Sequence record: OL615013
DNA: 64,000 bases
Source: Shigella phage ChubbyThor
Direction: 5' to 3' (one strand)
Each line of letters opens with the position of its first letter. Positions within the stretch are counted from its first letter, which is position 1. A program made the translations under genes and the position numbers. Under the pieces are notes generated by a model. It worked only from the letters and a program-made list of their open reading frames with translations. It did not search any database and was not told where the DNA came from. This document shows positions 6,446 to 53,531 of the stretch, one piece after another.

Positions 6446-6934
6446 ATGATGCTGTTAATGAGCGTTCCACAGAACAAGATGACCCCTGAAACAGAGGGTA
6501 AGAATCACTTCAACATCTACAGCCAGAGCCAAACGGAACTCGGGCGCTTCCTCTCGCATTTTGCCCATCATCCAGTGACTACCTATGAGCACGGCGTGTT
6601 CAACTCCATGGAAGGCTACTGGTATTGGCTAAAGTACAGGGATGACAACCTGCGCTTGCTCGACGGCTACGAAGCCAAGCAATATGGGCAGGGGTTGGCG
6701 GCCACTCGCATCGCTGTCCTTGATCCATCATCCGAAGAATTCAAGCGGGACATTCTGTTTGCCACCAGCATGAAACTCCAGACAATGCCCGACCTGCTGA
6801 AGATCAGATTGGCGTACAGTCGACTCCCTCTGATCCATGCATACGTTCGGAACGGGAAATATAGTTTTCAAAACTCTATGGACTATATCATTGCACACAT
6901 TAATCGTCTCCGCATACAAGGAACTCTGAAATGA
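6446..6934 (+). CDS. Hypothetical protein
   Basis: ORF-track start is TTG at 6431; first ATG at 6446 used. No recognised motif. Confidence 0.4.
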   Translation: MMLLMSVPQNKMTPETEGKNHFNIYSQSQTELGRFLSHFAHHPVTTYEHGVFNSMEGYWYWLKYRDDNLRLLDGYEAKQYGQGLAATRIAVLDPSSEEFKRDILFATSMKLQTMPDLLKIRLAYSRLPLIHAYVRNGKYSFQNSMDYIIAHINRLRIQGTLK

Positions 6935-7515
6935 AATTTATACACACCATCGTCGGCACTTCCTATGATTGCACCGCACACGAGCCAAACCGCTCGCCCG
7001 TGTTTGTTCTGAACAAACTGGGTGAAGAGATCTGTGAACTGTCTGATGTGTTTCATGGTATCGGCACAGCGTCCGAACCGTTGAATGGTGAAGTTGCTGA
7101 CGTCATTATCTCTGCCATTGACCTCCTGTATGTTATGGATTTCAATGACCAACAACTGCATGGTTGCATGACCAAAGAAGAGTTGGTCGACTCGGTTCAG
7201 ACACGTTTGGGGTTGTGTGGTGATTGTTCTCCCGAATATCTTGAAGCAGATTGGTTCCGCATTATCGATCGTGAACCCCAGAAGCATCTGAACCTCATTC
7301 ACCATTACCATGGCCGGATCATCCGATTATGCAATCAGCCTTATCGTAGCCAAGACATTCTAGAGAGGCTCGTTGCTAATTTGATCAAACATGTCGCACG
7401 GATGGCTTGCGGTGAAGGTGCCTTGCACAGCGTGAATATGTTGAGTACCCACATCAAAGTAGAGCACGCCATTGAACACAAAGTTGAAAAGTGGCGCATT
7501 AAATTTGGCCTATGA
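6931..7515 (+). CDS. Putative MazG-like nucleotide pyrophosphohydrolase
   Basis: AAGGAA SD; ATGA overlap with upstream gene; LGEEICELSDV...GEVADVIISAIDLL resembles the MazG EExxE/ExxD motif pair. Weak. Confidence 0.35.
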   Translation: MKFIHTIVGTSYDCTAHEPNRSPVFVLNKLGEEICELSDVFHGIGTASEPLNGEVADVIISAIDLLYVMDFNDQQLHGCMTKEELVDSVQTRLGLCGDCSPEYLEADWFRIIDREPQKHLNLIHHYHGRIIRLCNQPYRSQDILERLVANLIKHVARMACGEGALHSVNMLSTHIKVEHAIEHKVEKWRIKFGL

Positions 7516-8342
7516 AATACAAAATAATTTTGGATGCTCTTATACAGAGAGCAAAACTTCGAGGTAGAATGGAAGGCGTTTATCAAGAACGCCACCACAT
7601 AATCCCTGTGTGTTTGGGTGGAACCAACCATTTTTCCAACCTTGTGTGGCTCACGCCAGAAGAACATTATGTTGTTCATCACCTGCTTTGGAGGATAACC
7701 CCGCTTAACCCCGGAGTGAGGAAAGCTTGGACTGGGATGAACAACATGTCTAGGAGCAACAAAGAATTTGGGGAATTCAGGAGAAATAATTCCACCAGAA
7801 TGAAAGAAGTGATGTCATCTGATGAACAAAAGGAACGTTGTCGTAAGCAATCCAAGAAAAACTCATTGAACCCAGAAGTGCAGAAGAAACGTGCGGGTAG
7901 CTTGAGAGGTTACACTTGGGATGACGAATCAAGGCGCAGGTTGTCAAAATCCAGGAAAGGGATACCACACTCCGAAGCACACAAAGCCAACCTTACCAAA
8001 TCAGTCACCGAACGGATGAGGCGACCAGAAGAAAGGGAGAGGTATTCTGCTATGTGGCGCCAGAACAATCCCATGAATAACATACAACCTTGGGAACACC
8101 CGACTGTCGTAAAGACGGGTAAATCCCGACAATGGCTCCTGGCTGGTGAATTCTTTGAATGGTGGTGTGGTAACGGTGAAGACAAAGTGAAGAACCGTTA
8201 TTGTTTAATGTTGAAAGAAACCGGGTTAAGCTCTGTGTGTTCTAAGGCCACAGCTCAAACTTGTATATCTAAATTTCAGAAAGGTTGGATACCAAAAGAA
8301 GATCCCGCCTGGTTGAAATTTTACGGAGATAATAATGGTTGA
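7512..8342 (+). CDS. HNH homing endonuclease
   Basis: HHIIPVCLGGTNHFSNLVWLTPEEHYVVHHLL HNH motif; start and stop both overlap the neighbouring genes; paralogous to ORFs at 24926-25621 and 52872-53531. Confidence 0.75.
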   Translation: MKYKIILDALIQRAKLRGRMEGVYQERHHIIPVCLGGTNHFSNLVWLTPEEHYVVHHLLWRITPLNPGVRKAWTGMNNMSRSNKEFGEFRRNNSTRMKEVMSSDEQKERCRKQSKKNSLNPEVQKKRAGSLRGYTWDDESRRRLSKSRKGIPHSEAHKANLTKSVTERMRRPEERERYSAMWRQNNPMNNIQPWEHPTVVKTGKSRQWLLAGEFFEWWCGNGEDKVKNRYCLMLKETGLSSVCSKATAQTCISKFQKGWIPKEDPAWLKFYGDNNG

Positions 8343-14713: not shown

Positions 14714-14947
14714 ATGAATCCTCGGGAAACTGCTATGACTACAGCAAGAAGTTACAGAAAGAACTTCAACATCGAAGGGATTGAGTTCTACCACCATTAC
14801 GCCCAGGACACCCATGGCACTGTATGCAACACATACATGCTTGACGGTCGCCCTGTAGGTTCCGATGAGTTCTATCGTGTTTTGCGCGAGTCTACAGAAG
14901 AATCCCTGTCTTACATTATCAATGCCAACGGATTGATTAAACCATGA
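14714..14947 (+). CDS. Hypothetical protein
   Basis: Small ORF, ATGA-coupled to the next gene. Confidence 0.35.
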   Translation: MNPRETAMTTARSYRKNFNIEGIEFYHHYAQDTHGTVCNTYMLDGRPVGSDEFYRVLRESTEESLSYIINANGLIKP

Positions 14948-15630
14948 TCAACGTATCAATAAACGACCGAGATTTCGTCCACGCTGTTATGACAAACAAC
15001 AAAGACCCTCTTGCGTACAACGGGGAGAAGGTTACTCTGTTCTGGTCAGGCGGCGTGGACAGCACGTACATGCTATTCTGGCTGTTGGCTCACGGGTACG
15101 AAGTTCACACGATCTACTGCGAACTGGAGAACAACTCCTTCAAGGTGAAGCGTGAGAACTGGTCGCGCAAGAAGATCAGGGAATGGGTGACCACAAATTC
15201 GCCGAGGTTGAACACTCATTGGCATCACAGAGAAACCCCGATCAGCAAAATGAGCATCCAGTCTGGTGAGTTCCGGCCTTGTCTGGCTCAAGCCCCTGTG
15301 TGGTTGGTGAACACCCAATTCGCGGGTGGCCATTTTGATCGAGGACTGCCAAGAACTTATGTGATGGCATACGTCAACGGAGACGACGCTCTACACTGGA
15401 TCCCTGCCTTCAACAAGATCGTGGAGGGTTATAACATGTTGGCCAAAGACGGGCATGAGATCACCGTTCTCTTCCCTCTCGCCAGCATGAAGAAGACATG
15501 GTTCTACGAAGCCTTGTCGCCAATCTACGGGCTGATGACCTGGTGTGAATATCTCGTTCTGAAAAAGAACTGTGAATGCCCCGCTTGTGTCCGCCACCGT
15601 CATGAACTTTCCGTGTTTGAGGGGAAATAA
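14944..15630 (+). CDS. PP-loop ATP pyrophosphatase (QueC-like; NadE-like not excluded)
   Basis: SGGVDS PP-loop motif (LFWSGGVDSTYML) near N-terminus; C-terminal Cys cluster C-x9-CxCxxC. Confidence 0.5.
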   Translation: MINVSINDRDFVHAVMTNNKDPLAYNGEKVTLFWSGGVDSTYMLFWLLAHGYEVHTIYCELENNSFKVKRENWSRKKIREWVTTNSPRLNTHWHHRETPISKMSIQSGEFRPCLAQAPVWLVNTQFAGGHFDRGLPRTYVMAYVNGDDALHWIPAFNKIVEGYNMLAKDGHEITVLFPLASMKKTWFYEALSPIYGLMTWCEYLVLKKNCECPACVRHRHELSVFEGK

Positions 15631-17250: not shown

Positions 17251-17592
17251 ATGACCCCATTAAAAGAAATGTATGAGCGCCTGGCTGAACTGCAGGCGAA
17301 GGAAAAGCGCTTCTCGGAAGAAGAGACAGAGCTGTCCGAGCTGAACACTTTGATCGCCACTCGCGAGAAGTACCTCCAGCGCTACATCAACCATCCTCCC
17401 CACATGGTGGAGCGTGTGTCTGAAGCGATCATGCCGTTTGCTGGGCGTGAGTTTAATGAGCAAACTCGTGAAGAGATACTCAAAGTCATCGTAGCAGAAG
17501 TCCATTCCATGGTCTCCCTCGGCCAGATCTTTGGCCGCGCAGACCAGGAGGACATGATCTTCCTTCTGAACAAGAATGTGGTGGTGAAATAA
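17251..17592 (+). CDS. Hypothetical protein (predicted helical)
   Basis: GAGGAA SD 6 nt upstream. Confidence 0.45.
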   Translation: MTPLKEMYERLAELQAKEKRFSEEETELSELNTLIATREKYLQRYINHPPHMVERVSEAIMPFAGREFNEQTREEILKVIVAEVHSMVSLGQIFGRADQEDMIFLLNKNVVVK

Positions 17593-18095
17593 TGTCCATC
17601 AAGCCCCGTATGATGTTTGCGCACATGCGCTCGGCTCATGCATATGCACTGTCCAGCTATGCTCGGCGCCTGAAGGTCGGCTGTGTTATCGTTGACCCAA
17701 ATATTGACCAACCTGTTGCCATCGGCTGGAACGGGACTGCTCCTGGTGCTCCTAACGTCTGTGAGCAAGAAGTGGACGGTCAGTTGGTAAGCCTCGAAAG
17801 TGTTGTCCATGCTGAAGAGAATGCCCTGGACAATATACGAAAGGCTCACACCGGGCTTGTAATGTTCGTAACACACAGCCCCTGTCCGAGATGCACGAAG
17901 AAGATAATCGAAAGCGGTAATATCGACCAGATCTTTTACAATGTGCCATATCGAATCACAGACGGCATCGTTGAGATGATGAACGCTGGCATTGAAGTCT
18001 ATCGCATGGTCGACCAGTACGCCGTCGTCAAACATTGCTTTGATACCGAAGGCAAATTAACATCCACCCCTGTTTTAGTGAACCCTGACAAGTAA
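17592..18095 (+). CDS. cd: dCMP deaminase
   Basis: Zinc-binding deaminase motifs HAEENAL and SPCPRCTKKI (HxE...PCxxC); TAATG coupling. Confidence 0.75.
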   Translation: MSIKPRMMFAHMRSAHAYALSSYARRLKVGCVIVDPNIDQPVAIGWNGTAPGAPNVCEQEVDGQLVSLESVVHAEENALDNIRKAHTGLVMFVTHSPCPRCTKKIIESGNIDQIFYNVPYRITDGIVEMMNAGIEVYRMVDQYAVVKHCFDTEGKLTSTPVLVNPDK

Positions 18096-24267: not shown

Positions 24268-24933
24268 TCAGATTCCGTGGGCTTGTATTAGCTCACGGAG
24301 TCTCTGTTTTGAATATGTTGTATCCTCATCCGGCACCACAGCATTCGTCTTCCTGAGCAGGAAAGCCTCAGAGTTCCAGTAGATGTCCTCCCGCAGCTGG
24401 GTGTCATACAGGTGGATGAACCCCACTATCTTGTTCAGACCAACCAGGAACCACATCGGGAACCGCTTGGTGATGATGTCTGTCAGCAGCGCCGGGTGCC
24501 CCTGGCCTGTACCCTTCACATAATCAATGAACGATAGGTTGCGCTCTTTGATGGCCGGGATCATCTCCCTCTCGAACTCCTCAAGGAAGTTGTATGTGAA
24601 GTTGTCGTACAGCTTGCGATATTCATCATAATTCGATTGCGCCTGGCGGGTAAGCAATGTTGTCACCCAGGTCTTCGGTGATTTGATGAAGTTGGCGATG
24701 ATGTAGTTCTCTACCACTTCACCCTGGGATGTTTCGAACCGACGAGCCAGGCGAGCAAACTGTTTGCACACGGCTTCCTTCGCCAAGAAGGTTTCGAACT
24801 TGTAGTTCATCGGTCCATACAAACTGTAGTCGAAGTCCTTGGTGGTGAAGTGCAACTTAATCGCCATGAAGACACAATACACGTTGAACGCCCGTTCAAA
24901 CTGCATTTTTTCCCAATCGGTATACTCACGCAT
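24268..24933 (-). CDS. Putative helicase loader (T4 gp59-like)
   Basis: FNVYCVFMAIKLHFTTKDFDY resembles recalled T4 gp59 YKLYLMIKQHMNGKYDV; AGGAAA SD. Weak. Confidence 0.35.
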   Translation of the reverse strand: MREYTDWEKMQFERAFNVYCVFMAIKLHFTTKDFDYSLYGPMNYKFETFLAKEAVCKQFARLARRFETSQGEVVENYIIANFIKSPKTWVTTLLTRQAQSNYDEYRKLYDNFTYNFLEEFEREMIPAIKERNLSFIDYVKGTGQGHPALLTDIITKRFPMWFLVGLNKIVGFIHLYDTQLREDIYWNSEAFLLRKTNAVVPDEDTTYSKQRLRELIQAHGI

Positions 24934-25621
24934 TTTTCATTTCCTCGAAAAACTTAACCCAATTCTCATCATTGTACGGCACCCATCCTTTTTGAAATCT
25001 TTGTATGCAACTTTTGGCGGTCATTTCGGCGCGATCTACCCCCAATTCCTTGGCCATCGTTACATTTCGACATATGCCCAACCTGGCACCATCGGCTACC
25101 CACCAATCATAGAATACTCCTGCCAAAGCCCAATATTTGCGGGTATGCTTCGCATTTGGACTCTCCCAAGGCTTTGAATGGATTTGTTTTAATTTGGAAC
25201 GTTGTGAATCTGATTTGGGTCTGTCCATCAGCGAATCGGAAATTTTCGATCTGTGTTCGCGGGATAACGCCACCCCCTTGAATCTTTCACTGCATTTTCG
25301 TTTAAACTCTGGAGTGCTGTTGGCTGCCTTCATCCTTTCCCATTTTCTGAGAGCAAACTCTTCATATTGGCGTGAAGTTTGTGATTTTGATCTATTTCTC
25401 ATCAAAGAAAAGATTTTCACGTATGCAGGGGACATACTGAATATCTTGGCCAAAAGTTTGTGAACTATGAAATGCTCCCGAGCAGTTAGAACAGCAATAT
25501 TCTCCGCAGTATCACTCCCTCCCAAGCTCCTGGGTTCTCTATGGTGTCTTTCTGAATACCCAATCAGATTGCGAGAATAAGACCTTTCAAGGATAGAAAA
25601 CAACGCTCGGGTGTAGTTCAT
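24926..25621 (-). CDS. HNH homing endonuclease paralog (degenerate HNH motif)
   Basis: ERHHREPRSLGGSDTAENIAVLTAREHFIVHKLL; C-terminal FQKGWVPYNDENWVKF module shared with the other two HNH genes. Confidence 0.6.
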   Translation of the reverse strand: MNYTRALFSILERSYSRNLIGYSERHHREPRSLGGSDTAENIAVLTAREHFIVHKLLAKIFSMSPAYVKIFSLMRNRSKSQTSRQYEEFALRKWERMKAANSTPEFKRKCSERFKGVALSREHRSKISDSLMDRPKSDSQRSKLKQIHSKPWESPNAKHTRKYWALAGVFYDWWVADGARLGICRNVTMAKELGVDRAEMTAKSCIQRFQKGWVPYNDENWVKFFEEMKNA

Positions 25622-32524: not shown

Positions 32525-32854
32525 CTACCCCACCAAAAATTTATTGTATTCCTGAGCATTACGCTGCATGAGGGTTACAAGGATATCCCCTGTCACCTCA
32601 GTGAACAAGTCATTTTCTTTCAAATTCACAAACATCAGACGTAATGGTTTCTTCAATATATCGGTCACGAAAGACAGGCGGGGTTCGCCGTCCACTTCGT
32701 TGATGGCAACCTTGCCGAACCGGAATTGAACGCCACGGAATTTGCCAGAAGTGATCTTGATGATCGCCAGCTGATCAGCACCAGGGTCGATGATTGTGTA
32801 GTTATTGGGGGAGTTGCCTCCCCCTCCGTTGTCACTCGGATGTGTTGATAACAT
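32525..32854 (-). CDS. Hypothetical protein (occupies the T4 gene 40 position between uvsX and helicase)
   Basis: Positional only; start uncertain. Confidence 0.3.
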   Translation of the reverse strand: MLSTHPSDNGGGGNSPNNYTIIDPGADQLAIIKITSGKFRGVQFRFGKVAINEVDGEPRLSFVTDILKKPLRLMFVNLKENDLFTEVTGDILVTLMQRNAQEYNKFLVG

Positions 32855-33917
32855 GGTCCATTTGCTCCAGCATGTTCGCAGGCATAACAGTACCGTTAGA
32901 AACACCGAACATCTTCTTCACGTCATCGGCGAAGTCGACATTCTCCAGCAGCGGATACCAGAAATCATCATCCATCTGACGCTTCTGATATTTCTTTTCC
33001 TTCTCAGGATCGAAGCCGCCCTTGGCTGTACGCACATACCAGCCGGAAGACGGCATATCAACGTAACCCAGAGCACGAGCGATCTCAAGCAGGCCGCTCC
33101 AGCGGTCAATACCACCGTCGTACAGCACCGTCACAGGGAGCTTGGCTTTCTCTTTGACATGGCGACCTTTCATGATGCCGATGTTGAAGTTCCAGCCCAG
33201 CAGATCTTTGTCTTCCTTCACCTGAGAACGGGTGATGAACCAGATCAGGTTAGACGACAGGAAGCCCTGCTTGCCGCCTTTGATGTTAGGCTCGGCATAG
33301 ACGTTGCCGATCTCGTCATAGTAGGAGTTGATCCACACCAGAACGAGTTCTTTGCTGTTGATTTCGGGAGTAATGACACGCCAGAAGCTGTTGAGGGCAC
33401 GGGCACGGGTCATATCCTGTGTATCTTTACCAGCGATAGCGTCTTCAACTTCTTTGGTAGACGGCAACTGGCTGATTGAGTCGATGAACACGATGACCTT
33501 GTCACCCTTCTTGACTTCCTGAAGGATTTGCAACAGGCGGATCTTGGTCTGCTCAACGTTGTCAATCGGCACGTACAGGACGCGATCCATGTCAATACCC
33601 ATAGACGTCCAGTAATCGGCGTTGGCACCTTTCTCAGAGTCCGCGAAGATACACAGGGCATCAGGGAACTTGTCCATATACGCCTTGACATCTACCAGAC
33701 CGAACATCGTTTTGAAGGTACGGGAATCACCCACCATCATCTTGATACCGGAGATCAGGCCGCCGTCAATACGCCCGGACCAGGCGATGTCGATCAGGGG
33801 AATACCAGTAGAACAGATGATAGACGGTTCCAGAGCGTCTGATTGGGACAGCACTGAAGCCTGGTCGTCATGTTTCTTGGCAACCTTCAGCATGCGGTCC
33901 ATTAATGAACTGGCCAT
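32832..33917 (-). CDS. uvsX: Recombinase UvsX (RecA-like)
   Basis: Multiple blocks match recalled T4 UvsX: IPLIDIAWSG / IPMMNIALSG, KVIVFIDSISQL / KVVVFIDSLGNL, DMTRARALNSFWRVITP / DMTRAKTMKSLFRIVTP. Confidence 0.9.
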   Translation of the reverse strand: MASSLMDRMLKVAKKHDDQASVLSQSDALEPSIICSTGIPLIDIAWSGRIDGGLISGIKMMVGDSRTFKTMFGLVDVKAYMDKFPDALCIFADSEKGANADYWTSMGIDMDRVLYVPIDNVEQTKIRLLQILQEVKKGDKVIVFIDSISQLPSTKEVEDAIAGKDTQDMTRARALNSFWRVITPEINSKELVLVWINSYYDEIGNVYAEPNIKGGKQGFLSSNLIWFITRSQVKEDKDLLGWNFNIGIMKGRHVKEKAKLPVTVLYDGGIDRWSGLLEIARALGYVDMPSSGWYVRTAKGGFDPEKEKKYQKRQMDDDFWYPLLENVDFADDVKKMFGVSNGTVMPANMLEQMDHVINTSE

Positions 33918-34444
33918 TTCACTTCCTCTTTATTGTTGATCGTCGTTAATAATTCTACACCCATAACCTTCTGGGACAAAATGTTAATCGCCTCTTGGAT
34001 GCTCTTCAGAGACATCATCTCAACAGGCGACGGTGCATCATTATGTCGGTCGGTTAGGTACATATTGCGCAGATTGTTGTAGTTCGTGCGGTTGATGCAC
34101 GCAGCGTTCAGCGCAATATTCAGGATATACATCATCTGTTCAATGGTTACATCCTTCGGCATGGCGTGGATGTAATAGATCGAGCCTTCGAAGTAGACGT
34201 CCAGCAGTTCATCTGGTATCTCGACGCCACCACTGGCATACTCTTCGATCATCCTGAACAGAGACTCTGGTTGCTCGCTGGCGATCTTATGCGTGACAGT
34301 CGCCGAAAGACCATCACCCAGTTTAACAGGCCTGGTGTATTCAGTGATGAATACATTATGACCGCCGCCGATGATGTGCTCGGCGAAATTAGCGGATGCG
34401 TTCGCCGCGTTGTCTGCATGATATGAAACGACGACTGTAAACAT
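33902..34444 (-). CDS. Hypothetical protein
   Basis: ORF coupled to gp56-like gene; no recognised motif. Confidence 0.4.
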   Translation of the reverse strand: MFTVVVSYHADNAANASANFAEHIIGGGHNVFITEYTRPVKLGDGLSATVTHKIASEQPESLFRMIEEYASGGVEIPDELLDVYFEGSIYYIHAMPKDVTIEQMMYILNIALNAACINRTNYNNLRNMYLTDRHNDAPSPVEMMSLKSIQEAINILSQKVMGVELLTTINNKEEVKWPVH

Positions 34445-34998
34445 TAGAACTCCAGGGTCAGAGGGGTTTCTGCGGACTTGTCGTAATCCGCGCCGCCAGC
34501 AGCACGCAGACGATTGCGATCGTTCTTGCGCTTGTGTGCCAGCATGTAAGTCTCAATATCGATCTCCATGTAAGAACACGCAGCCGACAGGAAGAACATG
34601 AGGGTCTCGACACAAGGTTCGTTCATGAACTGCCCAAGGCGATACGTCACACCGCGATGCCCAACAGCACCCAAAGCAGATGGGGTGAATTCGCGACCAC
34701 CGAGGATTTCGAATTCTTCTTCGATCTCGCCTTTGGTGCGGTCCATAAGGATGAAGCACAGCATGAAGTGTACCACGTCCACCAGTTCATAGACTGCGTT
34801 CGCATGGTCAAACCCGATGTCGTTGCCATAGACCTTCCAGTCGCGGCTGGTTTCGTCAAGGAACTCTGCCCATTCACGATAGATGGAGTTGATGACTGCG
34901 TTCTGACTCCATACATTCTTCCACTCTTCCCCAAAGTAGGCCACGTTGGTGGCCTTTTGGAGTTCGAGCAGGCTTTTGATATGCCCTGCTGTGATCAT
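34444..34998 (-). CDS. dNTP pyrophosphatase (T4 gp56 dCTPase-like, all-alpha MazG/dUTPase_2 family)
   Basis: ELVDVVHFMLCFILM matches T4 gp56 ELVDIFHFVLNMFVG; size 184 aa. Confidence 0.55.
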   Translation of the reverse strand: MITAGHIKSLLELQKATNVAYFGEEWKNVWSQNAVINSIYREWAEFLDETSRDWKVYGNDIGFDHANAVYELVDVVHFMLCFILMDRTKGEIEEEFEILGGREFTPSALGAVGHRGVTYRLGQFMNEPCVETLMFFLSAACSYMEIDIETYMLAHKRKNDRNRLRAAGGADYDKSAETPLTLEF

Positions 34999-35564
34999 TT
35001 ACGTTCTCCGTAGAATTTAACGAACGGTGCCCAACCATCAAATGGATTGAGGAATTCGTAGTCCACTTTCATCTCGTCAATGAAAGCCTCTATATCGTCC
35101 TCTATGATACCAGCGCGGTCGGCCTTTGAAATGCGGGTGATAGGACATTTCGTACTCAGCGCCCATTCATATTCCTGAGGGGTGCGCAGATCGCTCACGA
35201 TATAATGTACATGAGGGTTCTGCTCCACCAAAGGAAGCTGGAAGCGCTTGAAGAATGCCAGGAACAGATCGGGCTGCACGTAACGCAAGCCCGTATCGCT
35301 GCCGAGATGGAGCCAGATCTGCCTTGGGGTTAAGCCCTTGGGGTTATCAGGGTGGACGTAAGGAACGTCCTTCACGGCATCCTCTACCTCCGCTGGCAGC
35401 CACGGGTAGATGTAATTGGCAACCCGGCGCAGTTCGTCTGAGAACGAAAGGCGCTGGATATCCATATCACCCTGTAGATGGTGATAGCTGATGAGGGACT
35501 CCAAACAGAAGTCCTTACCGGAGCGCTTGCGCCCCGTAAAGAATTCAAGGTTCGGGTACATCAT
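34995..35564 (-). CDS. Deoxynucleoside monophosphate kinase (T4 gp1-like)
   Basis: FFTGRKRSGKDF matches T4 gp1 FLSGVKRSGKDT P-loop. Confidence 0.75.
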   Translation of the reverse strand: MMYPNLEFFTGRKRSGKDFCLESLISYHHLQGDMDIQRLSFSDELRRVANYIYPWLPAEVEDAVKDVPYVHPDNPKGLTPRQIWLHLGSDTGLRYVQPDLFLAFFKRFQLPLVEQNPHVHYIVSDLRTPQEYEWALSTKCPITRISKADRAGIIEDDIEAFIDEMKVDYEFLNPFDGWAPFVKFYGERK

Positions 35565-36610
35565 ACCACACCTTCCAGGAACTTAGGATCAACGATCTTG
35601 CGGTCAACTGGAGAATGGGTGAGCGCAATGTTCAAACCATGATCCTGAATCCGGTTCATGTTGATGAGCTTATCGTTCAGTTTGCAGTACAGGCAGTATG
35701 CCATTTGCATGATCAAGCCACGATCAGCATCATATTCCTTCAGGTGGGCGACCACAGTTTCCCACGGGCTACCGATATCACAGTGATGAAGCACACCAGT
35801 GAACAGATTGCGGATATGGTTCTGGTTGGTCACGTTCTTGAAGTGAATCATGGAGTTGATGAACCCAGCTTCTACTTTGGTGTCCTTCGTGATCTTGCCC
35901 AGCTGCTTCTGGCTGACTTCATTGTTATAGTAATGAAGATTGTTAGAGAAGAGCTTGTACTGGCCGACATCAACATCCAGCACCTGAGCAATCACTTCCT
36001 GAAGAATAGAGAACTCAATGAAGTTGATTGAACTCATACCCCACAGAACATCCTGTGAGCGGTTGATGACCGTCAGGTTCAGACGACCTTCAACGATGGC
36101 GAACAACAGAGCCAGGTTACACACCATGTCTTTAGTCTTCGCTTCGCCGCTCTCGCTGAACTTCGCCAGACCAGCATCTGAATCTAGAGCCGGATCATAG
36201 ATGGTGAGGTACGCCTGACGGGTGTTTGGGTTCTTGCGCAGACGGTTGATGACGCTATCCAGCTGGCCATGGGCGTACAGACGCGGACCATAAGCGGCTC
36301 GCCATGTGTGGCCGTTGTCGGAAAAGTTGGCGGCGCGGGGCAACACGCGGGACAGGAAGCGAACGTCATCGCGCCCGGACAGAACCCAGAAGGTCTCGCC
36401 GATGGCAGCGATAGCCGATGAGTTACGGCCTTCAACGGAAAGCCAGCGGTCACGGATGTCACTGACGGTGATAGTCACACCATCAAGGAATCGGGTGCCG
36501 TCCGTGTTGATCTCCGCATTACCAGGATCAGATTCAATTCCGTATTCGCGGATAGCCAAGACAGCCTGCTTCAGCATGTCATTGTTGTTAATTGCTTTGA
36601 TTTCCATCAA
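35561..36610 (-). CDS. Thymidylate-synthase-family enzyme, probable pyrimidine hydroxymethylase (T4 gp42-like)
   Basis: VCNLALLFAIVEGRLNLTVINRSQDVLWGMSSINFIEFSILQEVIA aligns to E. coli ThyA [42 protein letters not shown], but PCH is VCN; sits in the T4 gene 42 position. Confidence 0.6.
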   Translation of the reverse strand: MMEIKAINNNDMLKQAVLAIREYGIESDPGNAEINTDGTRFLDGVTITVSDIRDRWLSVEGRNSSAIAAIGETFWVLSGRDDVRFLSRVLPRAANFSDNGHTWRAAYGPRLYAHGQLDSVINRLRKNPNTRQAYLTIYDPALDSDAGLAKFSESGEAKTKDMVCNLALLFAIVEGRLNLTVINRSQDVLWGMSSINFIEFSILQEVIAQVLDVDVGQYKLFSNNLHYYNNEVSQKQLGKITKDTKVEAGFINSMIHFKNVTNQNHIRNLFTGVLHHCDIGSPWETVVAHLKEYDADRGLIMQMAYCLYCKLNDKLINMNRIQDHGLNIALTHSPVDRKIVDPKFLEGVV

Positions 36611-37269
36611 TCAATACTCCCAAAATCACGACAGAGGAATGCCATTACAGCCTGGTCTACTGTTAGACCGTGAGACTTCATCATACCTGCGGCCACCGTA
36701 GGGAACAAGCCTTTATGGCGCTGGCGATGGTCTTGAACACGCTCCCACTTCTCTACCACGAGGCTCTCATTGAAGTCCGCACCGCCGTTACGTGATTTAA
36801 CACGGGCTATGCAGGTTTCAAGAGGGGTGTCCATGAAGAGAACAACCAGTTCGCGCGGTGGGCGCGTCAGGCGGGGGATCCAGGAACTCAGTAGAGTTGA
36901 AGGGATGATGCCTTCGAAGATCACATCGTATACCTGATATTCAGGTAGATCAGCGATGCTCAGGGCGAATAGCATTTGTTCGGTATCCTTCAGGGAATCA
37001 ACCCCCTTGGACTTTGACTTGTCATATTTGCCGATACACACCACGTTGAATGACGGGCAGACCGTCAACATAATCTTGCCATCATGCGTCACAACATACG
37101 CCTGAGGATCCCTCTCCGCCAGCTGAGACGGTACGGTGGATTTGCCGCTACCATTGGATCCTTTGACGTAATAGAGTTGCCCTCGTGCTGGGTAGATCCC
37201 CTTTACGACAGGCGGTTTAATGAATGTGTGGACGGGGCGCTTGAGCAACCCCTTGAGGGAGTAGGACAT
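36607..37269 (-). CDS. P-loop kinase of unknown substrate
   Basis: Walker A GSNGSGKST and Walker B-like YDVIFEG; start set at ATG 37269 with GGAG SD. Confidence 0.5.
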   Translation of the reverse strand: MSYSLKGLLKRPVHTFIKPPVVKGIYPARGQLYYVKGSNGSGKSTVPSQLAERDPQAYVVTHDGKIMLTVCPSFNVVCIGKYDKSKSKGVDSLKDTEQMLFALSIADLPEYQVYDVIFEGIIPSTLLSSWIPRLTRPPRELVVLFMDTPLETCIARVKSRNGGADFNESLVVEKWERVQDHRQRHKGLFPTVAAGMMKSHGLTVDQAVMAFLCRDFGSID

Positions 37270-37278
37270 AGACTGCTC

Positions 37279-37313
37279 CAATAAACAAAAGGAGCTGCTA
37301 TTATAGCAGCCCC
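37279..37313 (-). terminator. Rho-independent terminator (minus strand)
   Basis: Minus-strand GGGGCTGCTAT-AATAGCAGCTCC hairpin followed by TTTTGTTTATT, 30 nt after the stop at 37344. Confidence 0.6.
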
Positions 37314-37343
37314 TTCATCTATTGAACAGCTTCTGAACTTAAA

Positions 37344-38210
37344 TTACGCGGCAGCTTTCGCTTCGGCCAGCGCCTGAGGCAACCAGGCGTTGATTGCTTT
37401 GACCAGAGACTCGGCATCGGCCTCTTTGATCTTCTGGCGTTTGGTGAAGGACTTGCCGTTCACGTACAGACTGAAGCCCCAGCCACCGGAAACGATAGGC
37501 GCGACGTCAACGTATGTGTTGGTGCGGGCATGCAGGTTTTCAGGGTTGGCCAGTTCGGTGACCGGGAACTGGAACCAGCGCATGTCTGGGTTCACGTAGC
37601 TCAGGAACACACCTGGGACAACTCCTGCTTCAATCGCAGCCAAGACCGGACCGTGGTTAGAAGCGCGAGCCGCGTCAACCATTTCTTCACGTTTGGTATG
37701 ACGGCGTTTACGCTCTTCCAGCGCCGCCTGCGGGGTCAGGGTCTTACCCTTCGCCGCTTCTTTCAGCATAGAAGACGCCAGGGAACCCACTTTCGCGTCG
37801 GACGGCTGATTACCTTCTTCCAGCGCTGCGTTGACTGCGTCTTTAACCGCGTCTACCGGGGCGTCGGACACTGGGGCTTCACCTGCGTCGGCGTTACCAG
37901 CACCAGCGGTTGCGTCGGCGGAGATCGGCGCTTCAGCAACAACGGTTTCAGCGTCTTTCAGGGATACTTCAGCGTGGGCTTGCTCTTGGGCTTGCGCCAG
38001 AGCCTGCTGAGTTTCTTCCTTCTCTTCAGCGCTCAGACCTTCAATCAGTTCGAATCCGTTGGCGGACTGAAGAACGCCTTCCACCATACGGCGCAGGGTA
38101 ACGTTGCCGATCATCAGGCCTGCTTCTTTGATTTCAGCCTGGATAGCCGTAACGTCTTTGCCTTCAATTTCAATTTTGGTTCCAGAATCTACATGAAGAA
38201 TATATGACAT
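37344..38210 (-). CDS. Hypothetical protein with central Ala/Asp/Glu-rich low-complexity linker
   Basis: ORF-track GTG start replaced by ATG 38210 (MSYILHV); sigma70-like promoter about 70 nt upstream. Confidence 0.45.
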   Translation of the reverse strand: MSYILHVDSGTKIEIEGKDVTAIQAEIKEAGLMIGNVTLRRMVEGVLQSANGFELIEGLSAEEKEETQQALAQAQEQAHAEVSLKDAETVVAEAPISADATAGAGNADAGEAPVSDAPVDAVKDAVNAALEEGNQPSDAKVGSLASSMLKEAAKGKTLTPQAALEERKRRHTKREEMVDAARASNHGPVLAAIEAGVVPGVFLSYVNPDMRWFQFPVTELANPENLHARTNTYVDVAPIVSGGWGFSLYVNGKSFTKRQKIKEADAESLVKAINAWLPQALAEAKAAA

Positions 38211-38280
38211 AATAAAAACCCTTTCGTTATTAAGACCGTCTTCGCGGCATATTGCTGTTCTGACCGTGTAGTGAGAACAT

Positions 38281-38308
38281 AATATACTGCATTTTTCATA
38301 AATGTAAA
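38281..38308 (-). promoter_or_regulatory. Sigma70-like promoter (TTTACA, 16-nt spacer, TATATT) reading the minus strand
   Basis: Minus strand reads TTTACA tttatgaaaaatgcag TATATT; located in a 210-bp intergenic gap. Confidence 0.4.
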
Positions 38309-38422
38309 CCACTTTTTATTGAAAAGAAGTTTACACCTTAGTGTTAAACCGCGCCCAGCCAAGCGGAGCGCGAACTTGCGTGAATATTAACTTTCAACGT
38401 CAGTATTGAAAACAAGTTTCAG

Positions 38423-39166
38423 TCACTTGTTCAGCAAGTAGAAGTTGGGGATGTCTTCTGAATATTCAGCTGGCGTGAACTCCAGTTTCACTTTGGCTTC
38501 GACGTTTTCCCGAACTTTGCGAATAACTTCTTCCCTTTGTTCAGTGGCCATGACTTCTTCAATCGCGCCGTACAGAGTTTCAACAATCACGCTGATGTAA
38601 TTGTGAATCGCCCGACAGGTGTTCTGGTCATATTCCATGTCTGGGTCAATCTTCAGTTCAACCTGATCACGCCCAACCAGCAAATGCCCGTTAGACACAT
38701 TCACGGTGTGCTTGAACACATCACTCGCTTTCATGGACACGCCATCAGCCTGCGCCAGGTAAAACTCAGTCTTGGAGAACTGCTCCAGAACATCGGCAGG
38801 GAAATCGATTTGAATATCACTACGGTGGCGGCCAAGGTAATACAAGCAATGTGAAAGTCTGAGACACGCTTCTTGTGCCATCTTCACATGGGATTTTGCG
38901 TGTTCGTATCCAGCCAAGACATCACGCAAAAAGTCTGCGATTTCCTGGCTCCCATACTTGACCTGATCTTCTAAATCCAAGGCAGTAGGGCTATCCCACT
39001 CAACGCCCAAGACATCCAAGATGTTTTGTTCACGGACAGATTTACCCTGACGATTAAACCCCAGAGTGCACCCCACTTCAAACCCGGTTGGTTCAAAGGT
39101 GGTCAGTTTCACATCAAGACGAGCTGGAGTGAAATCTAGCCCGAACAGACGATAAATTTGTGACAT
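38423..39166 (-). CDS. Hypothetical protein
   Basis: ORF; no recognised motif. Confidence 0.45.
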   Translation of the reverse strand: MSQIYRLFGLDFTPARLDVKLTTFEPTGFEVGCTLGFNRQGKSVREQNILDVLGVEWDSPTALDLEDQVKYGSQEIADFLRDVLAGYEHAKSHVKMAQEACLRLSHCLYYLGRHRSDIQIDFPADVLEQFSKTEFYLAQADGVSMKASDVFKHTVNVSNGHLLVGRDQVELKIDPDMEYDQNTCRAIHNYISVIVETLYGAIEEVMATEQREEVIRKVRENVEAKVKLEFTPAEYSEDIPNFYLLNK

Positions 39167-39228
39167 GTTATAGCCTCATTGTTTAGGATTACCCGTTCAT
39201 GAATTATCCCTCGGAACGGGTTATAGAA

Positions 39229-39933
39229 CTATTTCTTCTTATGCATCCGACGCGCATCTTTCCAAACAGACATCTGACTCTGTTTCTGGAAGCGAGCGGT
39301 GCGCATGAAGAGGACGATCTCCCAGTACTGTGGCTCGATCTCATAGAGCTGAGTGCGGAAGCGGTCGGCGCGGTACAGCTTCACACAGTGATTGTACAGC
39401 GGGTGGTTGGCAAACCGCTTCAGAGCATCCCAAGTGAGCTTCAGACGCGTCTTTGAGCGGTACGCCCGTTCGTTGCGCAACTTGATGAGATCTTCGAACA
39501 CTAACAGCCTGAGCTTCGGTGGGAGGTAATGCATGTTCAGTCCCCAGAGGTATGTCACGCCCTTCTCTCCAAAGGTGATTCCATCACCCTTGGCAAAGTT
39601 GAAGAAGAACACCAGAGGATACATATCCCAGTACGGCAGTTCGTCCTTCGTCAGAGCATCGTATTTGAAATAGAACATGCGCCCGACCATATACCGCACA
39701 CCCTGTACGGGACGCTTGTGATCAGCGAACGCCTGTTTCATATGGTTGGGAGTCAGGTTGGCGTCCTTAGACACACGCTCCATGAACCACACATGCGAAC
39801 GGCGGATGTTGCGCTTCGCCTCTGGACCGAAGTGTTGGCGGTACTTTCGGATGTATCGCTTGACGAGTTCAGGGGCGTCCATCTCGGCCGGAAACAGCAA
39901 CGGATCTTCTTCGCCAGCTGCATTCTTTGCCAT
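39229..39933 (-). CDS. Hypothetical basic protein
   Basis: ORF; no recognised motif. Confidence 0.45.
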   Translation of the reverse strand: MAKNAAGEEDPLLFPAEMDAPELVKRYIRKYRQHFGPEAKRNIRRSHVWFMERVSKDANLTPNHMKQAFADHKRPVQGVRYMVGRMFYFKYDALTKDELPYWDMYPLVFFFNFAKGDGITFGEKGVTYLWGLNMHYLPPKLRLLVFEDLIKLRNERAYRSKTRLKLTWDALKRFANHPLYNHCVKLYRADRFRTQLYEIEPQYWEIVLFMRTARFQKQSQMSVWKDARRMHKKK

Positions 39934-52871: not shown

Positions 52872-53531
52872 TTATTGACTTACAAACTCTAACCACTCTG
52901 GGTCGGCTTTGGGATTCCACCCAGATTTAAATTTATTAATCATTGTGAAATGCGGAGTCGTCTTGTTTTTGAACCCAAACGCTTTCGCCATGAACGTGCA
53001 ACCTTTTTGGTTGCACAACCACCAATCATAATATTCGTCGGCGCGTTTCCATATATCCAAAGACTCTTTGGTGGCATGGTTACTTTCCCAAGGTTGTTTT
53101 ATCACGCAGATATTGTTTTCCTTCAAACGTTTAGACTGTATTTCCCGCAAATGAGGATACTTTACATGTGTCTGTTTCATTTGATCGGAACGAATTTTCC
53201 TCAAATTAGGGTTGTCTTTGTACATCTGTTTATTGGAATGAGAAAGTTTTCTCCGCAACCAACCGAATAATTTGTTACAAGATCTACCGGAGAATTCATT
53301 GTTTACGCACATAGCATTAGCTGCAAATGCTAATTTGAAATTTTTGGGATATATTTTGACTAACAATTGATGTGCCAAATAATGTTCTTCTGGTGTCAAC
53401 TCCACCAGATTATGTTTGTCATCTTTCCCTCCCATACATCTAGGGATAATATGGTGGGTTTCAGAATAACCAACCAATGAACGGGTCTTGGCTCTTTGTA
53501 TCAGAGAGTCATAGATATTTTGATAATTCAT
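52872..53531 (-). CDS. HNH homing endonuclease
   Basis: THHIIPRCMGGKDDKHNLVELTPEEHYLAHQLL; C-terminal KFKSGWNPKADPEWLEF module; inserted between phoH and nrdA. Confidence 0.7.
   Translation of the reverse strand: MNYQNIYDSLIQRAKTRSLVGYSETHHIIPRCMGGKDDKHNLVELTPEEHYLAHQLLVKIYPKNFKLAFAANAMCVNNEFSGRSCNKLFGWLRRKLSHSNKQMYKDNPNLRKIRSDQMKQTHVKYPHLREIQSKRLKENNICVIKQPWESNHATKESLDIWKRADEYYDWWLCNQKGCTFMAKAFGFKNKTTPHFTMINKFKSGWNPKADPEWLEFVSQ

Follow-up and report, generated by a model that had tools for sequence, protein, structure and literature searches.

In the thymidine hypermodification pathway of ViI-like phages (Ackermannviridae), thymine is replaced with 5-hydroxymethyluracil, part of which is then converted to 5-(2-aminoethoxy)methyluracil. 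Measurements of the corresponding nucleoside, 5-(2-aminoethoxy)methyl-deoxyuridine (5-NeOmdU), exist for ViI, CBA120, CBA6, and 1.255.O and, from later work, for a Taipeivirus, and virion DNA of the ViI type contains normal deoxycytidine (dC) and modified thymidine (T). The pathway chemistry has been shown for ViI and CBA120, and purified ViI gp67, among other homologs, transfers the gamma-phosphate of ATP to 5-hydroxymethyl-deoxyuridine (5-hmdU) in DNA in vitro (Lee et al. 2021 NAR, PMC8989533). Synthesis of 5-NeOmdU in ViI requires the kinase, the serine:DNA transferase aGPT-Pplase2 (gp247), and the pyridoxal phosphate (PLP) decarboxylase gp226, and the phage additionally encodes a second kinase (gp243) and aGPT-Pplase1 (gp160). 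Thymidine hypermodification is described in reviews as a hallmark of the Ackermannviridae. Phages SKML-39 and Ag3 are listed among those with a kinase for 5-hmdU DNA (5-HMUDK) (Lee et al. 2018 PNAS, Table 1, PMC5889632), and the kinase has been placed beside a dUMP hydroxymethyltransferase (Fig. 2 legend of the same paper). Here, we analyze a stretch of 64,000 nucleotides (nt) from Shigella phage ChubbyThor (sequence record OL615013), referred to below as the window, and describe a module on its minus strand that very likely comprises the nucleotide-pool genes and the first postreplicative enzyme of this pathway (Table 1).

Layout of the module and its closest relatives

The module region shares 99.0% DNA identity with Salmonella phage SKML-39 (Agtrevirus, Ackermannviridae) and 96-98% with Shigella phages MK-13 and Ag3 (Agtrevirus), and the initial 25 kb of the window find their best match in Shigella phage Gloob (96.9%). 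Judged by these comparisons, the window is mosaic and closely related to Agtreviruses that have been sequenced. The minus strand from 34444 to 37269 carries four open reading frames (ORFs) with overlapping stops and starts, at the very coordinates given in the initial annotation, which had described them as codirectional and translationally coupled. The kinase stop and the start of the thymidylate synthase (TS)-family gene share TGATG, a 1-nt overlap with the ATG at 36607. ATGATG joins the TS-family gene to the dNMP kinase gene, ATGA joins the latter to the NTP pyrophosphohydrolase gene, and TAATG marks the passage into the ACT-like gene. The coupled chain is longer than first described, since it extends past the four genes through the ACT-like gene to uvsX (32832-33917), and these last two overlap by 16 nt. 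Gene lengths had been right to within a codon: counted from its ATG at 37269, the kinase has 220 amino acids (aa) rather than 221, and the earlier count of 349 aa for the TS-family protein starts at a TTG one codon upstream. The order uvsX, ACT-like, dUTPase, dnk, TS-family, and kinase is identical in the window and the type phage ViI. Family matches of the four module proteins lie far beyond chance, with E=3e-107 for the kinase, 1.6e-185 for the TS-fold protein, 4e-47 for the dNMP kinase, and 3e-40 for the pyrophosphohydrolase.

A GGAG ribosome-binding site lies 7 nt 5' of the kinase ATG at 37269. Directly 5' of this site we observe a strong hairpin terminator, with a TATAAT inside its loop and stem. 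Because the terminator precedes the ribosome-binding site of the kinase, transcription of the module has either to pass this hairpin or to start anew there.

Table 1. Coordinates of the module genes and associated features in the ChubbyThor window
Feature	Coordinates	Strand	Basis or position
Predicted 5-hydroxymethyl-dU DNA kinase (5-HMUDK), ViI gp67 ortholog	36607-37269	-	PF18748, gp67 identity
Predicted TS-fold dUMP hydroxymethylase, ViI gp66 ortholog	35561-36607	-	Pfam Thymidylat_synt, phrog_3676, gp66 identity
dNMP kinase, T4 gp1 family, 189 aa	34995-35564	-	phrog_139 E=4.2e-47
All-alpha NTP pyrophosphohydrolase, dimeric dUTPase (dUTPase_2)/T4 gp56 family, 184 aa	34444-34998	-	phrog_173 E=3.3e-40
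ACT-like phage protein, coupled (TAATG) to the NTP pyrophosphohydrolase gene	33902-34444	-	Pfam PF24021 ACT_phage E=3.5e-80
dCMP deaminase, dUMP supply	17592-18095	+	Pfam dCMP_cyt_deam_1 E=7.6e-17; motifs HAEENA, PCPRC (HAE, PCxxC)
Hairpin terminator, 13-bp stem and T-rich tail TGTTTATT	37288-37316	-	Between the kinase gene and its upstream gene

The DNA kinase and the thymidylate synthase-fold enzyme

The P-loop protein that opens the module matches Pfam family PF18748 (HMUDK_HMUD1) with E=3.2e-107 and 356.9 bits (cutoff, 27) over profile positions 1-195 of 196; the match spans residues 18-212 of the scanned 224-aa translation from a TTG start, equivalent to about residues 14-208 of the 220-aa ATG product. 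Identity to ViI gp67 reaches 88% over all 220 aa, gap-free, and the Walker A motif is intact (GSNGSGKS, residues 37-44, at 37138-37161). Matches to the thymidylate kinase and polynucleotide kinase families are tens of orders of magnitude weaker than that to PF18748 (thymidylate kinase phrog_761, E=8e-6), and an NCBIfam scan gave no match to Tmk or any other nucleotide kinase. When the kinase was searched against PDB sequences, only generic P-loop noise came back, and no solved 5-HMUDK relative was found. By family profile and gp67 orthology, we assign the protein as a 5-hmdU DNA kinase. This bears out the initial annotation, which had placed it on the 5-hmdU DNA kinase route and had proposed a profile comparison of such kinases with ordinary nucleotide kinases.

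The best PHROG of the kinase, phrog_800, is labeled “terminase small subunit,” and ViI gp67 falls in it too. Since phrog_800 carries that label, the kinase orthologs of SKML-39, Ag3, and ViI (NC_019910, NC_013693, and NC_015296) bear the same name in RefSeq. The label is wrong: ViI and SKML-39 each have a small terminase gene of their own that adjoins the large terminase gene.

The adjacent TS-fold protein is 77% identical to ViI gp66 and matches phrog_3676 (E=1.6e-185) as well as, above cutoff, Pfam Thymidylat_synt (E=4.5e-16). All seven NCBIfam TS equivalog models fail, with 19-57 bits against cutoffs of 108-427 (best, 57.5 versus 327). The initial annotation had read VCN at the catalytic cysteine, where true thymidylate synthases have PCH, and we observe the same: the active-site motif is V162-C163-N164 (VCN at 36116-36124), preceded by M, with Cys163 as the catalytic residue. 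Because the consensus of the wider family at this site is P-C-N, the change from His to Asn is family-wide and the change from Pro to Val is local. Residues E71, C163, R183, S184, D186, N195, H225, and Y227 align with E58, C146, R166, S167, D169, N177, H207, and Y209 of Escherichia coli ThyA; the family shows no variation at C163, R183, D186, H225, and Y227, and its consensus retains S184. In the alignment, ThyA His147 is replaced by Asn. The folate-side residues Trp80 and Trp83 of ThyA are probably lost as well, with Ala92 and Phe95 at their positions according to a manual, ungapped reregistration anchored on Tyr106 (ThyA Tyr94) rather than the MAFFT placement.

In ThyA, Asn177 is the residue that recognizes uracil. 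Its counterpart in the alignment, N195, is shared by at least 90% of family members, whereas the dCMP hydroxymethylase gp42 of T4 and MilA, a CMP hydroxymethylase, have Asp at or beside this column. Uracil is favored as the substrate and cytosine disfavored because the protein has Asn at the ThyA Asn177 position.

A search with the family profile gives E=2e-55 for MilA versus 5e-30 for the best true TS. The AlphaFold2 model of the protein (predicted local distance difference test score, 94; predicted template modeling score, 0.93) points in the same direction. Its top Foldseek match is MilA, with a template modeling (TM) score of 0.74 over 346 columns, compared with 0.53-0.57 over about 264 columns for TS structures. 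A helical domain of approximately 110 additional residues at the C terminus is shared with MilA and absent from true TS. The suggestion that the protein is not a canonical TS is thus upheld by structure prediction, and both sequence and model argue for a predicted hydroxymethylase-type enzyme rather than a true TS. Its predicted product is 5-hmdUMP, which we infer from the 5-hmdU-derived bases in ViI and CBA120 DNA.

Outside the Ackermannviridae, the nearest phage relatives of the TS-fold protein are the TS homologs of M6-like and SPO1-like phages with 5-hydroxymethyluracil (hmU), which produce 5-hmdU or its derivatives, at 31-35% identity (E=1e-23 to 1e-33); T4-type td is far more remote, at 23-25% (E=1e-4 to 1e-6). 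T4 gp42 gave no significant pairwise BLASTP match to the protein and is assigned to a different PHROG. Many metagenomic and actinophage homologs are 490-600 aa long, a length that implies fusion to a second domain. On one metagenomic phage contig, dUTPase_2, a P-loop protein, and a TS homolog are encoded consecutively and a dCTP deaminase close by, and in Ralstonia phage RP13 the TS-family homolog adjoins the DNA polymerase gene. These distant contexts add nothing to the known picture.

Predicted pathway and alternative readings

The remaining two genes of the module belong to families that also include T4 nucleotide-pool enzymes. The P-loop of the dNMP kinase, GRKRSGKD (35511-35534), aligns with GVKRSGKD of T4 gp1, which itself matches phrog_139 with E=1.8e-65. 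The pyrophosphohydrolase matches Pfam dUTPase_2 (E=6.8e-8; 33.4 bits versus a cutoff of 22.9), its best PDB sequence matches are dimeric dUTPases (1w2y, E=0.0026), and T4 gp56 falls in the same phrog_173 (E=5.8e-39). Direct BLASTP comparisons are only marginal, with E=0.003 for the dNMP kinase against gp1, in the P-loop region, and E=0.005 for the pyrophosphohydrolase against gp56, so the kinship is established through the shared PHROG profiles. The gp1-like and gp56-like assignments made earlier therefore hold at the family level, and the dCMP deaminase reported at 17592 is real (Table 1). In addition, the window encodes a second, MazG-type nucleotide pyrophosphatase (6931-7515, plus strand; phrog_1247, E=1.9e-35) adjoining the topoisomerase genes, which could be a candidate remover of dTTP or dUTP from the pool.

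In the proposed pathway, dUMP would come from the dCMP deaminase and from the pyrophosphatase of the dUTPase type. The TS-fold enzyme would then transfer a methylene group from methylene-tetrahydrofolate onto C5 of dUMP via Cys163, and the intermediate would be released through hydration, not hydride transfer, as 5-hmdUMP. The gp1-type kinase would convert this to 5-hmdUDP and host nucleoside diphosphate kinase to 5-hmdUTP, and the phage polymerase would place 5-hmdU where T would be. After replication, the DNA kinase would turn the hydroxymethyl group into a phosphate ester, a leaving group for serine transfer. Two enzymes encoded outside the window would complete the route: the aGPT-Pplase2 serine:DNA transferase, with the serine hydroxyl displacing the phosphate, and the PLP decarboxylase, yielding 5-NeOmdU. 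Leftover 5-hmdU would become thymine (PMC8989533).

SKML-39 encodes homologs of five ViI genes, namely gp67 (88%), gp160 (84%), gp226 (92%), gp243 (85%), and gp247 (87%), the last four of which are separated from the module by about 40-55 kb; a gp247 homolog is also present in Ag3 and P46FS4. Family assignments, residue conservation, fold, and orthology to ViI are established directly here, as is the presence of the five ViI genes in SKML-39. From orthologs that are 77-92% identical, we infer that ChubbyThor has the distal genes and the same modified base.

Several points weigh against assigning this pathway to ChubbyThor. A tblastn search of the 64-kb window with ViI gp226, gp243, gp247, and gp160 returned no homolog; gp243 gave a chance-level P-loop match to the gp67-type kinase. 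Since, of the pathway genes, the window contains no more than the kinase and the prereplicative ones, a complete pathway in ChubbyThor is drawn from its relatives. The predicted hydroxymethylase activity, as opposed to methylase activity, rests on homology, context, and the DNA chemistry of relatives. Finally, our literature search found no nucleoside analysis of any Agtrevirus, and 5-NeOmdU in this genus is a prediction.

One alternative is that the module gives plain 5-hmdU DNA only, with the kinase inactive or serving nucleotide metabolism, which we regard as quite improbable. Several genome papers still call these phages hmdU-substituted, and the distal hypermodification genes have no match within the window. 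However, ViI-type virions contain no 5-hmdU (PMC8989533), the 88% identity of the kinase to gp67 and its intact Walker A argue for an active DNA kinase, and all the distal genes are present in SKML-39 (84-92% identity).

It is very improbable that the TS-fold enzyme is instead a dCMP (or CMP) hydroxymethylase and that cytosine is modified as in T4. The initial annotation had left this open by proposing replacement of “C or T,” and the closest solved structure is that of the CMP hydroxymethylase MilA. Of the two bases, the evidence favors T only: the near-invariant Asn195 aligns with ThyA Asn177, where gp42 and MilA have Asp at or beside the column, and the enzyme groups apart from gp42 in both PHROG membership and pairwise comparison. 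Moreover, the dCMP deaminase encoded in the window would drain dCMP to dUMP, and it is T, with dC normal, that is modified in ViI-type virion DNA.

That the database labels are right, with an ordinary dTMP-making TS beside a small terminase subunit, has hardly any credibility: it is favored by the RefSeq product names in SKML-39, Ag3, and ViI, by the phrog_800 label, and by the above-cutoff Pfam Thymidylat_synt match, yet a proven DNA base kinase, ViI gp67, sits in phrog_800 as well (PMC8989533), ViI and SKML-39 have their own small terminase gene beside the large one, the kinase matches PF18748 at E=3e-107, and the TS-fold protein stays at or below 57 bits against equivalog cutoffs of 108-427, lacks His147 and probably Trp80 and Trp83, and has a MilA-like model that includes an additional C-terminal domain.

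A thymidine hypermodification module therefore remains our preferred reading of the locus. The module is already known, as the ViI pathway was reconstituted in 2021, and its recovery here is the rediscovery of a known system. It was recognizable from the raw sequence alone, and its value for this window is practical only, with no new biology. With thymidine hypermodification, these phages of broad host range are protected from many restriction enzymes. This bears on phage therapy and on the sequencing or cloning of their DNA, and public annotation still names the DNA base kinase “terminase small subunit” and the hydroxymethylase “thymidylate synthase.”

Neighboring genes and comparison with known systems

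Regions 33902-34444 and 37344-39933 had been put forward in the initial annotation as candidates for the transferase steps. This proposal is unsupported, because homologs of the downstream ViI enzymes (gp247, gp226, gp243, and gp160) map about 40-55 kb away in SKML-39 and none is found in the window. The gene at 33902-34444 is rejected as a transferase, being ACT-like, and so is that at 39229-39933, a homolog of the T4 gp2-type DNA end protector (E=5e-26). The two remaining genes, 37344-38312 and 38423-39166, have no enzyme-family match in Pfam or NCBIfam and fall in PHROGs of unknown function only. At 38414-38480, 67 nt replace 345 nt of SKML-39, and a 95-aa ORF (SKML-39 gp112, ViI gp70) is missing from the window. 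The sequence on the low-coordinate side of this site shares about 96-97% identity with SKML-39; past the site, the values are about 83% in the adjacent 1.5 kb and about 95% in the next 10 kb. This suggests a segment that is locally divergent or recombinant.

The ACT-like protein occurs in 269 phage records, and those listed are all ViI-like by organism name; in the annotated records listed, its gene sits between uvsX and the dUTPase gene. It was not found in other hmU phages. The protein has diverged far more rapidly than the products of adjoining genes, with 56% identity to Kutterviruses versus 88% for the kinase. To our knowledge, no dTMPase or dTTPase is assigned in this phage family, and for this reason the ACT-like protein is a candidate for the missing activity that would exclude thymidine nucleotides from the pool; it could also be a ligand-sensing regulator. 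We consider it unlikely that the protein is an unrecognized part of the hmdU nucleotide module, or that Agtrevirus differs from ViI in the extent or sequence contexts of T modification.

Elsewhere in the window, we observe three paralogous HNH homing-endonuclease ORFs at 7512-8342 (plus strand), 24926-25621 (minus strand), and 52872-53531 (minus strand) (phrog_655, E=1e-54 to 1e-66). They adjoin the genes for the topoisomerase II large subunit and the helicase loader and nrdA, and their insertion sites are empty in SKML-39. Conversely, two SKML-39 homing endonucleases, one between the topoisomerase genes and one near nrdB, are missing from the window. A PP-loop ATPase at 14944-15630 (plus strand; phrog_1550, E=3.6e-73) is called “QueC-like” in other annotations; its Pfam QueC match covers the N-terminal PP-loop only, at 28 bits. 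SKML-39 lacks this gene, whereas Shigella phage Gloob has it with 100% identity and many Kutterviruses with about 62%, and no other 7-deazaguanine genes are in view.

Among known systems, the 5-NeOmdU pathway of ViI (Kuttervirus) resembles the locus most in gene order, in its kinase (gp67, 88%) and TS-fold enzyme (gp66, 77%), and in its distal genes, which recur in SKML-39. It differs in that the phage studied here belongs to the genus Agtrevirus, subfamily Aglimvirinae, and its window has no small ORF matching ViI gp70. MilA, the mildiomycin CMP 5-hydroxymethylase (PDB 5jnh and 5b6d), has the TS core and a helical extension at the C terminus in common with the phage enzyme, and in both the residue following the catalytic Cys is not His. 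In contrast, the two are only about 20% identical, the MilA substrate is a cytosine ribonucleotide, and the base-specifying position is Asp in MilA and Asn in the phage enzyme.

The hmdC module of T4 (gp56 dCTPase/dUTPase, gp1, and gp42) follows the same logic of pyrophosphatase, hydroxymethylase, and dNMP kinase, lies beside uvsX and gene 41, and shares two PHROGs with the window proteins through gp56 and gp1. Its target base is C, whereas that of the window system is U, and its gp42 is a member of another PHROG with no pairwise similarity to the TS-fold protein. Furthermore, glucosylation follows in T4, whereas the pathway of the window type uses phosphorylation and amino acid transfer. M6-like Pseudomonas phages likewise pair a TS homolog with a 5-HMUDK (PMC5889632), but M6 makes 5-NedU from glycine with a radical SAM isomerase. 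SPO1-like Bacillus phages share the TS homolog with the locus described here, whereas their pathway ends at 5-hmdU.

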